From NCBI RefSeq assembly GCF_011045215.1, contig NZ_CP049201.1: a stretch of 64,000 bases of DNA, one strand, 5' to 3'. The stretch comes from Escherichia coli (GTDB lineage Bacteria > Pseudomonadota > Gammaproteobacteria > Enterobacterales > Enterobacteriaceae). Positions 58,219 through 62,277 of this stretch are shown here, piece by piece; position 1 is the stretch's first letter, and each line of letters starts with the position of its first letter. The notes beneath the pieces are model-generated. The model saw only the letters and a program-made list of their open reading frames with translations, was not told the DNA's origin and made no database searches. A program made the translations under genes and the position numbers.

Positions 58219-58620
58219 ATGACATGGAATCCGTTGGCGCTGGCGACGGCGCTGCAAACTGTACCTGAACAAAATATTGATGTAACAAATAGCGATAACG
58301 CATTAATTATTAAAATGAATGATTATGGCGATTTGCAAATCAATATTCTTTTTACTTCCCGCCAAATGATTATCGAAACCTTTATTTGTCCGGTAAGTAG
58401 TATCAGCAATCCAGATGAATTTAATACCTTCTTATTAAGAAATCAGAAGATGATGCCGTTGTCATCGGTAGGAATCTCCAGCGTGCAACAGGAAGAGTAT
58501 TACATTGTTTTCGGGGCGTTATCGCTTAAATCTTCTCTTGAAGATATCCTGCTTGAGATAACCTCGCTGGTAGATAACGCATTGGATCTGGCTGAAATTA
58601 CAGAAGAATATTCACACTAA
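58219..58620 (+). CDS. yjfI: Uncharacterised protein YjfI
   Basis: 133-aa ORF, first gene of the yjfIJKLMC cluster. Confidence 0.8.
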   Translation: MTWNPLALATALQTVPEQNIDVTNSDNALIIKMNDYGDLQINILFTSRQMIIETFICPVSSISNPDEFNTFLLRNQKMMPLSSVGISSVQQEEYYIVFGALSLKSSLEDILLEITSLVDNALDLAEITEEYSH

Positions 58621-58638
58621 TTACAAGGACGGGTATTT

Positions 58639-59337
58639 ATGGGAATTTTAAAAAGTTTATTCACGCTGGGGAAATCGTTTATCTCCCAGGCGGAAGAGTC
58701 CATTGAAGAAACCCAGGGCGTGCGCATGCTGGAACAGCATATTCGTGACGCTAAAGCTGAACTCGATAAAGCCGGAAAATCTCGCGTCGATCTGCTGGCG
58801 CGGGTGAAATTAAGTCACGATAAGCTGAAAGATTTACGTGAGCGCAAAGCCAGTCTGGAAGCCCGTGCGCTGGAAGCGTTAAGCAAGAACGTTAATCCGT
58901 CGTTGATTAACGAAGTTGCTGAAGAAATCGCGCGCCTTGAGAATCTCATTACCGCTGAAGAGCAAGTGTTGTCGAATCTGGAAGTCTCCCGTGATGGCGT
59001 GGAAAAAGCAGTTGCAGCGACAGCGCAGCGTATCGCTCAGTTTGAGCAGCAAATGGAAGTCGTTAAAGCCACTGAAGCCATGCAGCGTGCACAACAGGCT
59101 GTAACGACTTCTACCGTTGGCGCATCTTCCAGCGTTTCGACAGCAGCAGAATCCTTAAAACGCCTGCAAACGCGTCAGGCCGAACGTCAGGCTCGCCTGG
59201 ATGCTGCCGCACAGTTAGAAAAAGTCGCAGACGGTCGCGACCTTGACGAAAAGCTGGCGGAAGCCGGAATTGGCGGTAGCAATAAAAGTAGCGCCCAGGA
59301 TGTATTAGCAAGACTGCAACGCCAACAGGGCGAGTAA
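58639..59337 (+). CDS. yjfJ: PspA/IM30-family protein YjfJ
   Basis: Coiled-coil-rich 232-aa protein. Confidence 0.8.
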   Translation: MGILKSLFTLGKSFISQAEESIEETQGVRMLEQHIRDAKAELDKAGKSRVDLLARVKLSHDKLKDLRERKASLEARALEALSKNVNPSLINEVAEEIARLENLITAEEQVLSNLEVSRDGVEKAVAATAQRIAQFEQQMEVVKATEAMQRAQQAVTTSTVGASSSVSTAAESLKRLQTRQAERQARLDAAAQLEKVADGRDLDEKLAEAGIGGSNKSSAQDVLARLQRQQGE

Positions 59338-59387
59338 TTTTTTTGCCAGCCTCACTGCAAGGCTGGCAACTATTTTAAGGATAAAAT

Positions 59388-60047
59388 ATGTCTGGTTTTT
59401 TCCAGCGTCTGTTTGGCAAGGATAATAAGCCTGCTATCGCTCGCGGTCCGCTGGGACTTCATCTCAATAGTGGCTTTACGCTCGACACGTTAGCGTTTCG
59501 TTTGCTGGAAGATGAATTGCTGATTGCGCTGCCGGGTGAGGAATTTACGGTAGCCGCTGTCAGCCACATCGATCTGGGCGGCGGTAGTCAGATTTTCCGC
59601 TACTACACTTCAGGCGATGAGTTTCTGCAAATCAATACCACCGGCGGCGAAGATATTGATGACATTGATGATATCAAGCTCTTTGTCTATGAAGAGAGCT
59701 ACGGTATCAGTAAAGAGAGTCACTGGCGCGAGGCGATCAACGCCAAAACGATGGGGGCAATGACCTTAAACTGGCAGGAAAAACGCTGGCAGCGATTTTT
59801 TAACAGCGAAGAACCGGGAAATATCGAACCCGTCTACATGCTGGAAAAAGTAGAAAATCAAAATCATGCTAAATGGGAAGTCCATAATTTTACCATGGGC
59901 TACCAGCGGCAAGTGACCGAAGATACTTACGAATATTTGCTGCTAAATGGTGAGGAATCTTTTAACGATCTCGGCGAGCCAGAGTGGTTATTTTCGCGCG
60001 CGTTGGGTGTCGATATCCCGCTGACATCACTTCATATTATTGGTTAA
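59388..60047 (+). CDS. yjfK: Uncharacterised protein YjfK
   Basis: 219 aa. Confidence 0.8.
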   Translation: MSGFFQRLFGKDNKPAIARGPLGLHLNSGFTLDTLAFRLLEDELLIALPGEEFTVAAVSHIDLGGGSQIFRYYTSGDEFLQINTTGGEDIDDIDDIKLFVYEESYGISKESHWREAINAKTMGAMTLNWQEKRWQRFFNSEEPGNIEPVYMLEKVENQNHAKWEVHNFTMGYQRQVTEDTYEYLLLNGEESFNDLGEPEWLFSRALGVDIPLTSLHIIG

Positions 60048-60064
60048 TTACAAGGACGTTTACA

Positions 60065-60463
60065 ATGCATATACTGGATTCACTTCTTGCCTTTAGTGCC
60101 TATTTTTTTATTGGCGTGGCGATGGTGATTATTTTTCTGTTTATCTACTCCAAAATTACACCGCACAACGAATGGCAGTTAATCAAAAACAATAATACCG
60201 CGGCGTCACTGGCATTCAGCGGTACATTGTTGGGTTACGTGATCCCCTTATCCAGTGCGGCAATCAATGCGGTGAGTATTCCAGACTATTTCGCCTGGGG
60301 CGGGATTGCACTGGTGATTCAGTTACTCGTTTTTGCTGGTGTCAGACTTTATATGCCCGCATTAAGCGAAAAAATTATTAATCACAATACCGCAGCAGGA
60401 ATGTTTATGGGAACCGCCGCGCTGGCTGGCGGTATTTTTAACGCAGCTTGTATGACATGGTAA
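60065..60463 (+). CDS. yjfL: Inner-membrane protein YjfL
   Basis: Start MHILDSLLAFSAYFFIGVAMV; ORF-track N-extension rejected. Confidence 0.8.
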   Translation: MHILDSLLAFSAYFFIGVAMVIIFLFIYSKITPHNEWQLIKNNNTAASLAFSGTLLGYVIPLSSAAINAVSIPDYFAWGGIALVIQLLVFAGVRLYMPALSEKIINHNTAAGMFMGTAALAGGIFNAACMTW

Positions 60464-60472
60464 TGGACGATC

Positions 60473-61111
60473 ATGGCCAGAAAACGCAAATCAAGAAATA
60501 ACAGTAAAATTGGTCACGGAGCGATCAGTCGCATTGGTAGACCGAATAATCCTTTTGAACCGCGTCGCAATCGCTACGCACAAAAATACTTAACGTTGGC
60601 GCTAATGGGCGGTGCCGCTTTTTTAATAGTCAAAGGATGGAGTGAAAGTAGCGATGTCGATAACGACGGCGACGGAACGTTTTACTCGACTGTGCAGGAT
60701 TGTATTGATGACGGTAATAATGCCGACATTTGCGCGCGTGGCTGGAACAACGCCAAAGCAGCATTTTATGCCGATGTTCCGAAGAATATGACTCAGCAGA
60801 ATTGTCAGTCTAAGTACGAAAATTGCTACTACGACAACGTTGAACAGAGTTGGATCCCGGTCGTTTCTGGATTTTTGTTAAGCCGGGTTATTCGTAAAGA
60901 TCGCGATGAGCAGTTTGTTTATAACAGCGGCGGATCCTCATTTGCTTCCCGCCCCGTCTGGCGCAACACTTCTGGTGATTACTCCTGGCGCTCCGGTTCT
61001 GGCAAAAAAGAGTCTTACTCTTCAGGCGGCTTTACCACCAAAAAAGCGTCAACCGTTTCTCGCGGCGGCTATGGTCGTTCTTCCAGCGCCCGTGGGCATT
61101 GGGGAGGCTAA
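60473..61111 (+). CDS. yjfM: Uncharacterised protein YjfM
   Basis: 212 aa. Confidence 0.8.
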   Translation: MARKRKSRNNSKIGHGAISRIGRPNNPFEPRRNRYAQKYLTLALMGGAAFLIVKGWSESSDVDNDGDGTFYSTVQDCIDDGNNADICARGWNNAKAAFYADVPKNMTQQNCQSKYENCYYDNVEQSWIPVVSGFLLSRVIRKDRDEQFVYNSGGSSFASRPVWRNTSGDYSWRSGSGKKESYSSGGFTTKKASTVSRGGYGRSSSARGHWGG

Positions 61112-61113
61112 TC

Positions 61114-62277
61114 ATGCTGAGACACAACGTTCCTGTGCGACGGGATCTGGACCAAATCGCCGCTGACAACGGTTTCGACTTTCATATCATCGACAATGAA
61201 ATCTATTGGGACGAGAGTCGGGCTTACCGTTTTACTCTGCGCCAGATTGAAGAGCAGATCGAAAAACCGACTGCGGAACTGCATCAGATGTGCCTTGAGG
61301 TGGTGGATCGCGCGGTTAAAGACGAAGAGATCCTGACGCAACTGGCGATCCCTCCGTTGTACTGGGATGTGATCGCTGAAAGCTGGCGCGCACGCGATCC
61401 TTCGCTGTATGGCCGGATGGATTTTGCCTGGTGTGGCAATGCGCCGGTGAAGCTGCTGGAGTACAACGCCGATACGCCGACCTCGTTGTATGAGTCGGCT
61501 TATTTCCAGTGGTTGTGGCTAGAGGATGCCCGGCGCAGCGGCATTATTCCGCGTGATGCCGATCAGTACAATGCCATTCAGGAACGCCTGATTTCGCGCT
61601 TTAGTGAGCTTTACAGTCGGGAGCCGTTTTATTTCTGCTGCTGTCAGGACACCGATGAAGACAGGACTACCGTGCTGTACTTGCAGGACTGCGCCCAGCA
61701 GGCAGGGCAGGAGTCGCGGTTTATCTACATTGAAGATCTCGGTTTGGGCGTCGGCGGCGTACTGACCGATCTTGATGATAATGTCATCCAGCGTGCATTT
61801 AAGCTGTATCCGCTGGAGTGGATGATGCGTGACGATAACGGTCCGCTGCTGCGCAAGCGTCGCGAGCAATGGGTGGAGCCGTTATGGAAAAGTATCTTGA
61901 GTAATAAAGGGCTAATGCCGCTGCTTTGGCGCTTCTTCCCTGGTCATCCTAACCTTCTTGCATCCTGGTTTGAGGGTGAAAAACCGCAGATTGCCGCTGG
62001 CGAAAGCTATGTGCGTAAACCGATCTACTCGCGCGAAGGCGGAAATGTCACCATTTTCGACGGCCAGAATAACGTCGTTGACCACGCTGATGGTGATTAC
62101 GCCGATGAACCGATGATCTACCAGGCGTTTCAACCTCTGCCGCGGTTTGGCGATAGCTACACACTCATCGGTAGCTGGATTGTCGATGATGAAGCGTGCG
62201 GAATGGGGATTCGTGAAGATAACACACTGATCACCAAAGACACCTCACGTTTCGTTCCGCATTACATTGCTGGATAA
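61114..62277 (+). CDS. yjfC: Glutathionylspermidine-synthetase-like ATP-grasp protein YjfC
   Basis: Start MLRHNVPVRRDLDQ; 387 aa. Confidence 0.85.
   Translation: MLRHNVPVRRDLDQIAADNGFDFHIIDNEIYWDESRAYRFTLRQIEEQIEKPTAELHQMCLEVVDRAVKDEEILTQLAIPPLYWDVIAESWRARDPSLYGRMDFAWCGNAPVKLLEYNADTPTSLYESAYFQWLWLEDARRSGIIPRDADQYNAIQERLISRFSELYSREPFYFCCCQDTDEDRTTVLYLQDCAQQAGQESRFIYIEDLGLGVGGVLTDLDDNVIQRAFKLYPLEWMMRDDNGPLLRKRREQWVEPLWKSILSNKGLMPLLWRFFPGHPNLLASWFEGEKPQIAAGESYVRKPIYSREGGNVTIFDGQNNVVDHADGDYADEPMIYQAFQPLPRFGDSYTLIGSWIVDDEACGMGIREDNTLITKDTSRFVPHYIAG

Follow-up and report, generated by a model that had tools for sequence, protein, structure and literature searches.

What does a protein of the PspA/IM30 family have to do with an enzyme that joins spermidine to peptides, and what does that enzyme modify in the cell? 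The question is raised by yjfIJKLMC, a cluster of six genes lying in a stretch of 64,000 nucleotides of Escherichia coli DNA (contig NZ_CP049201.1), the whole of which is called the window here. The identity and class of the cluster are certain. Pfam places its six products, all far over the curated cut-offs, in DUF2170, PspA_IM30, DUF2491, DUF350, DUF1190 and GSP_synth, and PspA neighbourhoods in which a CesT/Tir-PspA dyad is accompanied by DUF350, DUF1190, DUF2491, a K+ channel and an ATP-grasp ligase have been described as a class (Ravi et al. 2024, PMC11237479). As a tentative reading, to which we give somewhat less than an even chance, we propose that yjfIJKLMC is the channel-less form of a seven-gene operon coupling a PspA-type protection pair to a polyamine-conjugation module, in which the ligase YjfC caps its neighbour YjfM. 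The literature already has a name and a class for the locus and characterises it in part; novel here are the hypothesis of YjfM as substrate and the findings on the channel loss, the invariant core and the C-terminus.

A core operon built around a peptide-spermidine ligase

A reading of the window from its letters alone (the sequence-only reading) had described six co-directional, packed genes, and the open reading frames (ORFs) bear this out, all of them lying on the plus strand (Table 1). The gaps between them are 18, 50, 17, 9 and 2 bp in gene order, so that the range of 18 to 50 bp given in that reading holds for two of them and omits the three shortest, while its remark that yjfM and yjfC almost abut agrees with the gap of 2 bp. 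The PspA/IM30 protein YjfJ, the small DUF350 membrane protein YjfL and the ATP-grasp enzyme YjfC, similar to glutathionylspermidine (Gsp) synthetase, were likewise recognised there as Pfam recognises them. Coordinates were taken from the ORF list together with the annotated start codons of an E. coli chromosome; identity of the stretch to annotated E. coli chromosomes is 99.4%. Mechanical ORF prediction gives longer starts for yjfL and yjfC, both overlapping the preceding gene (Table 1). The annotated ATG starts of both genes are preceded by ribosome-binding sites and agree with the solved YjfC protein. The locus was detected in 5425 of the 5426 complete E. coli genomes, and its flanks, rlmB upstream and aidB downstream, are constant in every E. 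coli locus examined. The cluster is genuine core-genome sequence rather than a chance pattern.

YjfC matches the Pfam family GSP_synth (PF03738) with an E value of 2e-149 and, over all its 387 residues, the structures deposited as 'YjfC' (PDB 7UK6/7UK7, E 4e-274); crystal structures of its paralogue YgiC are available as well (7UK8/7UKA). It aligns only to the synthetase part of Gss (residues 253-613), the amidase domain being absent. In the K-12 RefSeq annotation both YjfC and YgiC are named peptide--spermidine ligase, a name traced to Pederick et al. 2023, as cited in PMC11762307. According to this 2025 review, YgiC has no Gsp synthetase activity and does have peptide-spermidine ligase activity, its physiological substrate being unknown (PMC11762307); for YjfC, the review cites Sui 2012 to the effect that it makes no Gsp and does not use glutathione. 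That YjfC is an ATP-grasp enzyme joining spermidine to a peptide carboxylate in vitro is well supported. With the YjfC structures, the ligase name, the class of Ravi et al. 2024 and data on growth under heat (see below), the view that the operon lacks an assigned function, and that only the locus but no system is known, is outdated. The published functional assignment that would have overturned the sequence-only reading is thus partly at hand.

Homologues of YjfC led to three distant genomes (Hahella, Corallincola and Methylotuvimicrobium), in which genes for DUF2170, PspA, a K+ channel, DUF2491, DUF350, DUF1190 and the ligase stand between unrelated flanks. With profiles from these seed operons, 80 ligase loci, one genome per species, were scanned. 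The complete seven-gene array was present in 12 loci, with 2 more in partial form, and the six-gene array of the window in 8, with one more in which DUF350 went undetected. Half of the loci (40) had the DUF1190-ligase pair alone, as in ygiBC; DUF350-DUF1190-ligase was found in 9 and K+ channel-DUF350-DUF1190-ligase in 4, the channel accompanying the ligase module even in loci without the PspA pair. Two Bradyrhizobium loci carried DUF350 and the ligase, and in the last two there was no partner directly upstream of the ligase, one being a lone ligase and the other the locus of Vibrio ruber, where the order is circularly permuted, with the ligase before DUF2170 and DUF1190 last. DUF1190 stood directly upstream of the ligase in 76 of the 80 loci, and all four distant DUF1190 proteins that were checked from their own side had the ligase directly downstream. 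DUF1190 followed by the ligase is the invariant core of the operon. Beyond the core, the order DUF2170-PspA-[K+ channel]-DUF2491-DUF350-DUF1190-ligase recurs between unrelated flanks in Hahella, Corallincola, Methylotuvimicrobium, Alteromonadales, Marinomonas, Vreelandella (Halomonas group), Endozoicomonas, Desulfurivibrionaceae and Salmonella; the stop codon of one gene and the start codon of the next frequently overlap in these arrays. The co-directional order of the window, from the dyad through DUF2491, DUF350 and DUF1190 to the ligase, is repeated in at least 20 other genomes.

The C-terminus of YjfM as a candidate substrate of YjfC

Because DUF1190 and the ligase are inseparable, we examined the DUF1190 family for the substrate of the ligase. 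A whole-library HMMER search with YjfM (129 cluster representatives) together with 77 ligase neighbours gave 168 non-redundant full-length proteins. In nearly all of these (164 of 168) the last two residues are G-[GS], and in 136 the last three are [WMFYLIV]-G-[GS], versus 2.6 +/- 1.6 (maximum 10 in 2000 trials) when the last 30 residues of each protein were permuted. Within the last 12 residues, information content is highest at positions -2 and -1, with 4.2 and 3.7 bits. The family alignment also keeps a Cys at the lipobox position (96%), four further invariant Cys, a Met-rich segment with an invariant Pro and Gly, and an invariant R-G-G-F-G. YjfM itself, which matches the Pfam family PF06693 (DUF1190), has a basic N-terminus and, at residues 37-56, a membrane anchor. 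Its acidic domain contains the four invariant Cys, and a conserved Met-rich segment (residues 124-140) and a basic tail rich in Gly, Ser and Arg complete the protein; the tail peptide, TVSRGGYGRSSSARGHWGG, contains R197-G-G-Y-G201 and ends in W-G-G. In the two Bradyrhizobium genomes two mini-proteins stand in place of DUF1190, and all that they retain is a segment of membrane or signal type, a GGFG motif and GG(G/S) at the C-terminus.

The YjfM protein of the window differs from that of K-12 at the lipobox: codon 56 is TGG, encoding Trp, whereas the lipobox Cys is found at this place in K-12 and in 96% of DUF1190 proteins. Around this codon there are eight substitutions within 22 nt (yjfM nt 153-174). 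Over this 60-nt stretch of yjfM about 24% of the complete E. coli genomes are window-like (at least 95% identity) and 76% are K-12-like. The former include E. coli C, in which W56 was confirmed by translation.

The characterised enzyme closest to YjfC, Gsp synthetase, uses ATP to link spermidine as an amide to the carboxylate of the C-terminal glycine in glutathione, and for this reason the Gly-Gly end of YjfM is a natural candidate acceptor. In the mechanism that we propose, YjfC would dock on the conserved T-x-x-R-G-G-F/Y-G segment of the YjfM tail, would use ATP to activate the carboxylate of the last glycine, in the way that Gsp synthetase treats the glycine of glutathione, and would amidate the Gly-Gly C-terminus with spermidine. 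The arginine-rich tail, anchored in the membrane and capped with spermidine, would then be a tethered polycation. Speculatively, this polycation might act with YjfL and YjfK at the membrane surface, on anionic lipids and on the ancestrally co-encoded K+ channel, and the three together might limit ion leak while a YjfJ polymer protects the bilayer. That YjfM is the physiological substrate of YjfC we infer as a possibility, with a chance clearly below even. Rather doubtful is the wider idea that DUF1190 proteins in general, YjfM and YgiB alike, would be spermidine-capped at their Gly-Gly ends, either in the cytoplasm before export or on a cytoplasmic tail, with the polycation working together with the PspA-type protein and gating or plugging the K+ channel; in the case of YgiB, the target could be TolC, whose gene shares its operon.

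The contact between tail and ligase was modelled with AlphaFold2 on a construct in which a 30-residue Gly-Ser linker ties YjfC to the final 40 residues of YjfM, using 26 paired sequences. The linker remained disordered, with predicted local distance difference test (pLDDT) values of 25-38, and residues F187-R207 of YjfM, including RGGYG, reached about 75-77 with a beta-strand at T194-R197. The model is suggestive of a tail segment that becomes ordered when tethered to YjfC, and a contact between the two is predicted.

If true, capping of YjfM would amount to C-terminal polyamination, a bacterial protein modification of a new kind; a literature search for bacterial C-terminal polyamination, or for YgiB together with spermidine, returned nothing relevant beyond a TolC review. 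E. coli possesses, besides a second PspA-family system, two structurally solved peptide-spermidine ligases for which the comparative data single out one substrate candidate, the DUF1190 Gly-Gly end.

The PspA-type pair, the lost channel and transcription

The upstream half of the operon is known mainly through its first two genes. YjfI matches DUF2170 (PF09938, E 2.4e-44) and, over residues 3-128, the solved structure of Pseudomonas aeruginosa BacA (8Q8O, E 2.3e-16); DUF2170 and BacA have a CesT-like fold (PMC10948618, PMC11237479), and YjfI has been described as the CesT/Tir-like chaperone partner of a PspA homologue (PMC11237479). YjfJ matches PF04012 over its full length (residues 2-232, E 6e-58, 196.5 bits for a cut-off of 33.9), and its short N-terminal segment, MGILKSLFTLGKSFI, is amphipathic by eye. 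A solved close relative of YjfJ was not found by sequence, and the published 48-mer model of it was forced onto a template (PMC12492005). None of the six proteins matches the PspB, PspC or PspF families. It is well supported that YjfJ, of the PspA/ESCRT-III kind that binds and stabilises the stressed inner membrane, has in YjfI a paired protein of the CesT-like chaperone type; the invariable adjacency of the two genes suggests that the proteins may bind each other directly. A role of the operon in membrane stress is supported by the literature: plasmid-expressed yjfIJKL made cells grow about 1.2-fold faster at 42 C (PMC11472167).

The products of the next two genes are less familiar in structure. 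YjfK is acidic and soluble, without a membrane segment by composition, hydropathy and its model, which is confidently all-beta (pLDDT 90); its invariant residues are R71, Y73, Q81, E153, R174, E182 and E189, and no solved structural relative was found. YjfL (DUF350, PF03994, E 1.3e-33) is named an inner-membrane protein in the K-12 RefSeq annotation. The hydropathy scan merged its hydrophobic stretches into three segments, and the YjfL-family protein of this operon type is described as having four transmembrane segments (PMC11237479).

Between yjfJ and yjfK, where the window has a gap of 50 bp, the K+ channel gene with its intracellular ligand-sensing domain is absent. Salmonella enterica has the seven-gene form with the channel gene, at the same rnr-rlmB...aidB position. 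In E. coli, a channel gene of 1071 bp ('potassium channel family protein') lies between yjfJ and yjfK in 19 of the 5426 complete genomes and overlaps both through stop and start codons. These are very probably the same genomes as the 19 whose entire locus is 90-95% identical to that of the window, the two sets being equated because their counts match. When the window is compared with a channel-bearing allele, homology ends at the yjfJ stop codon and restarts at the yjfK start, and the 47 nt in between are unrelated to it. In Klebsiella pneumoniae the channel gene is also absent and a spacer of 53 nt takes its place; since the two spacers are different and unrelated, the channel gene was lost more than once. 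In the distant arrays the channel proteins match Ion_trans_2 and, weakly, TrkA_N. Without the channel, the operon of the window is a reduced version of the seven-gene one, as is that of the usual laboratory E. coli. Salmonella and the rare channel-bearing E. coli, EC42405 (NZ_CP043414.1) among them, are probably better hosts for learning what the system does.

The intrinsic terminator of rlmB forms the upstream boundary of the cluster and is followed by a very AT-rich leader, presumed to be the promoter region of yjfI. Low G+C extends into yjfI itself (38%, compared with 44-53% for the other five genes). No sigma-70-like site in this leader passed the scan, and no sigma-54 -24/-12 element of the kind present in the P. 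aeruginosa bac cluster was seen there by eye. The counts from the sigma-70 promoter and terminator scans are at chance level (7 sigma-70 promoters versus 6.6 expected, 10 terminators versus 5.9), and for this reason no single site, the two strong hairpins apart, is taken as evidence. In heat-evolved strains yjfIJKL is switched on by a (T)9->8 deletion at K-12 position 4410053, +47 from rlmB and -80 from yjfI. This site is the T9 tract (4410045-4410053) of the rlmB terminator; because the mutation sits in the T tract of a terminator, read-through from rnr-rlmB is a candidate alternative to the published account of a 'promoter mutation'. The window carries a natural C+T8 tract in place of the K-12 T9, and the stem of its terminator is better paired. 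The four genes yjfIJKL form one co-regulated expression module, the 'YjfJ iModulon', which is on in heat-evolved strains (PMC12492005), and the weak terminator-like hairpin in the 3' end of yjfL, which coincides with the end of this module, is a possible attenuation point before yjfMC.

A 13-nt junction, AATTACAAGGACG, occurs exactly twice in the 64 kb, for 0.16 copies expected, running each time from a stop codon through the ribosome-binding site of the next gene. It is retained in the E. coli loci examined, and its 9-nt core, TTACAAGGA, has no match in the Salmonella or Klebsiella loci. Presumably it resembles the binding consensus of CsrA (ACA-GGA). In Hahella and Corallincola a small divergent DUF6471 gene, which could encode a regulator, lies just upstream of DUF2170; E. 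coli has no equivalent of it. The Rfam scan of the whole window found no RNA family inside the cluster and three RNA features far from it (Table 1).

Table 1. Positions of the genes and other features of yjfIJKLMC in the window and, where a locus is named, in compared genomes
Feature	Position	Strand	Description or basis
rlmB intrinsic terminator	58107-58139	+	13-pair stem, terminator scan
C+T8 tract of rlmB terminator	58131-58139	+	sequence
Leader of yjfI	58140-58218	+	AT-rich, sequence
yjfI	58219-58620	+	DUF2170, 133 aa, acidic, G+C 38%
Junction AATTACAAGGACG, copy 1	58619-58631	+	yjfI stop codon through yjfJ ribosome-binding site
yjfJ	58639-59337	+	PspA/IM30 (bacterial ESCRT-III) family coiled-coil protein, 232 aa
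Gap at the place of the channel gene	59338-59387		counterpart of channel gene
Spacer replacing the channel gene	59340-59386	+	47 nt, homology comparison with channel-bearing E. coli allele
Hairpin in spacer	59343-59369	+	perfect 10-bp stem, terminator scan; RNA fold -18.6 kcal/mol, z -2.4
yjfK	59388-60047	+	DUF2491, 219 aa, acidic, soluble, all-beta
Longer ORF of yjfL	59984-60463	+	GTG start at 59984, overlaps yjfK
Junction AATTACAAGGACG, copy 2	60046-60058	+	yjfK stop codon through yjfL ribosome-binding site
yjfL	60065-60463	+	DUF350 inner-membrane protein, 132 aa
Hairpin in yjfL 3' end	60413-60433	+	terminator-like, weak consensus match
yjfM	60473-61111	+	DUF1190, 212 aa
Substitutions around codon 56 of yjfM	60625-60646	+	eight within 22 nt
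Codon 56 of yjfM	60638-60640	+	TGG (Trp)
R197-G-G-Y-G201 of YjfM	61061-61075	+	tail motif
Last Gly-Gly codons of yjfM	61103-61108	+	end of W-G-G
Longer ORF of yjfC	61099-62277	+	TTG start at 61099, overlaps yjfM
yjfC	61114-62277	+	ATP-grasp acid-amine ligase, Gsp-synthetase family, without amidase domain
tRNA gene	11426-11498	-	Rfam scan
Guanidine-II (mini-ykkC) riboswitch	25673-25719	+	Rfam scan
tRNA gene	40667-40739	+	Rfam scan
K+ channel gene, locus L089	5000-6070		
K+ channel gene, locus L095	3238-4308		
DUF6471 gene, locus L002	4647-4946	-	Hahella
DUF6471 gene, locus L004	4560-4826	-	Corallincola
Permuted array, locus L036	8947-14364		Vibrio ruber
Bradyrhizobium mini-protein ORFs, locus L086	8196-8624, 8741-8959		between DUF350 and ligase
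Bradyrhizobium mini-protein ORFs, locus L088	8215-8643, 8752-8973		between DUF350 and ligase

Alternative readings and relation to known systems

Several observations weigh against one operon in which YjfC caps YjfM. YjfJ, alone in the PspA/IM30 family, has been reported not to form large PspA-like rings (PMC5333519). The YjfJ iModulon covers yjfIJKL without yjfMC (PMC12492005), and the terminator scan places hairpins after yjfJ and within yjfL, which together make separate regulation of the two halves of the operon possible. In the AlphaFold2 model the last five residues of YjfM (GHWGG) have pLDDT values below 50, and docking is read from pLDDT alone, with no scrambled-tail control, because the model gave per-residue confidence and neither coordinates nor contact maps. 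Topology is a further difficulty. In 96% of the DUF1190 proteins a lipoprotein-type Cys follows the N-terminal hydrophobic segment, in addition to the four invariant Cys, and YjfC has no signal peptide; because of the lipobox and the Cys-rich acidic domain, the DUF1190 body would be periplasmic. YjfC, by contrast, is cytoplasmic. The sole candidate for a second span, residues 124-140 of YjfM, is short, has conserved Pro and Gly and often an Arg, and scores poorly as a transmembrane segment, and the Bradyrhizobium mini-proteins have no second hydrophobic segment at all. The charges of the family, with an acidic loop (mean net -7.9) and a basic tail (+9.7; positive in 77 of 77), match an out-membrane-in arrangement around the Met-rich segment, though the middle segment is a poor transmembrane helix. 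The shorter Bradyrhizobium mini-protein starts with MKRSRR[IV]WLK, a twin-arginine-like export signal; with such a signal, modification could precede export. Twin-arginine export was rejected as a general solution, the motif occurring in only 1 of 92 family members besides the Bradyrhizobium mini-proteins. Natural YjfM-YjfC fusions of E. coli (P0116-P0120, 548-601 aa) were likewise discarded as evidence for a cytoplasmic tail; they are frameshift read-throughs in which the tail is out of frame. One such frameshift DUF1190/GSP_synth protein cluster has 130 member sequences.

Part of this evidence would fit two independent neighbouring modules, a PspA-type stress unit (yjfIJ, perhaps with yjfKL) and yjfMC, which like ygiBC would serve polyamine metabolism. 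The loci with the DUF1190-ligase pair alone (40 of 80, including E. coli ygiBC downstream of tolC) and the 13 with DUF350-DUF1190-ligase and no PspA pair agree with such a division, as do the other partners that the YjfI-PspA pair has elsewhere (PMC11237479), the 'yjfIJ operon' spoken of in the BacA paper (PMC10948618), and the limits of the expression module at yjfIJKL, together with the hairpins just mentioned. However, the full six- or seven-gene order is found in several orders of Gammaproteobacteria and in one Desulfurivibrionaceae genome, with flanks differing each time, the short gaps (2-18 bp) or overlapping codons point to co-translation, and the transcript of heat-evolved strains passes the yjfJ-yjfK hairpin (PMC12492005); we regard two separate modules as unlikely. 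It is also improbable, in our view, that YjfC makes a free small peptide-spermidine product similar to Gsp, with YjfM as an accessory sensor, receptor or carrier across the membrane. The published activity of YjfC-type enzymes is on peptides in vitro, the closest characterised relatives take tripeptides, and the topology argument favours a periplasmic YjfM tail, but there is no known candidate peptide, YjfC does not take glutathione (Sui 2012, cited in PMC11762307), and a free product leaves unexplained why the extreme C-terminus of YjfM is its most conserved feature and why the tail is ordered beside the ligase in the model.

A bulk effect on heat tolerance has been put forward, in which YjfJ, YjfK and YjfL would add pores or protein mass to the envelope and thereby raise membrane viscosity or allow export of misfolded proteins (Rychel et al. 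2025). It agrees with the strong up-regulation in all heat-evolved strains with the (T)9->8 mutation and with the faster growth at 42 C from a plasmid (PMC11472167), yet the modelled YjfK is soluble and acidic without a membrane segment, YjfJ is reported to lack rings (PMC5333519), the pore idea is built on template-forced models, and both yjfMC and the ancestral K+ channel are ignored; we hold it to be quite unlikely. Least probable by far is that the cluster serves anti-phage defence or is cargo of a mobile element. PspA does stand for 'phage shock protein', and immunity-type genes are found close to two related loci (Imm49 in L004; TIR/SIR2 near P0266). A PADLOC scan of the six proteins gave coiled-coil noise only, the locus is core genome, with one fixed position across 5425 of 5426 E. 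coli genomes and synteny in Salmonella and Klebsiella, and neither an integrase nor repeats flank it; on the scan and the core-genome location, a defence-system identity was rejected.

Among known systems, the nearest is the 'third group' of PspA-CesT/Tir operons (Ravi et al. 2024, mSystems, PMC11237479), with the same families in the same order and with E. coli YjfI and YjfL as named prototypes; the described type has a K+ channel gene where the window has the 47-nt hairpin spacer. With the classical Psp system (pspF/pspABCDE, pspG) the cluster shares the PspA/IM30 family of YjfJ and the link to heat and membrane stress, but it lacks the partners PspB, PspC and PspF and a visible sigma-54 promoter, and the partner of YjfJ is a CesT-like protein. 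The bac cluster of P. aeruginosa (BacA PA3732, BacB PA3731) has a DUF2170 protein followed by a PspA homologue, as in yjfI-yjfJ, although BacA has an N-terminal extension, YjfI aligning only to positions 87-201 of the 206 of the NCBIfam BacA model, and a spermidine synthase was not found in or near that cluster (PMC10948618).

The ligase half has its closest counterpart in ygiB-ygiC of E. coli, a paralogous pair of DUF1190 and ligase genes downstream of tolC. YgiC is 51% identical to YjfC, and YgiB shows the DUF1190 pattern of four Cys, Met-rich segment and RGGFG, with MGG at its C-terminus. Unlike yjfMC, this pair stands alone, without genes for PspA, DUF2491 and DUF350, and the lipobox of YgiB is canonical (LAGC). 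Gss (GspS) and trypanothione synthetase belong to the same ATP-grasp synthetase fold and family as YjfC, which lacks the amidase domain. ATP-grasp enzymes that act on the terminal carboxylate of a specific protein are represented by RimK, which modifies ribosomal protein S6, and by tubulin tyrosine ligase; these add amino acids, not a polyamine. The product proposed for YjfM would resemble the eukaryotic conjugates of SUMO and ubiquitin with spermidine, in which the N1 of spermidine forms an amide with a C-terminal Gly-Gly carboxylate (PMC12270671); those conjugates arise through E1/E2 thioester chemistry on unrelated proteins, whereas YjfC would reach the same kind of bond through ATP-grasp catalysis.

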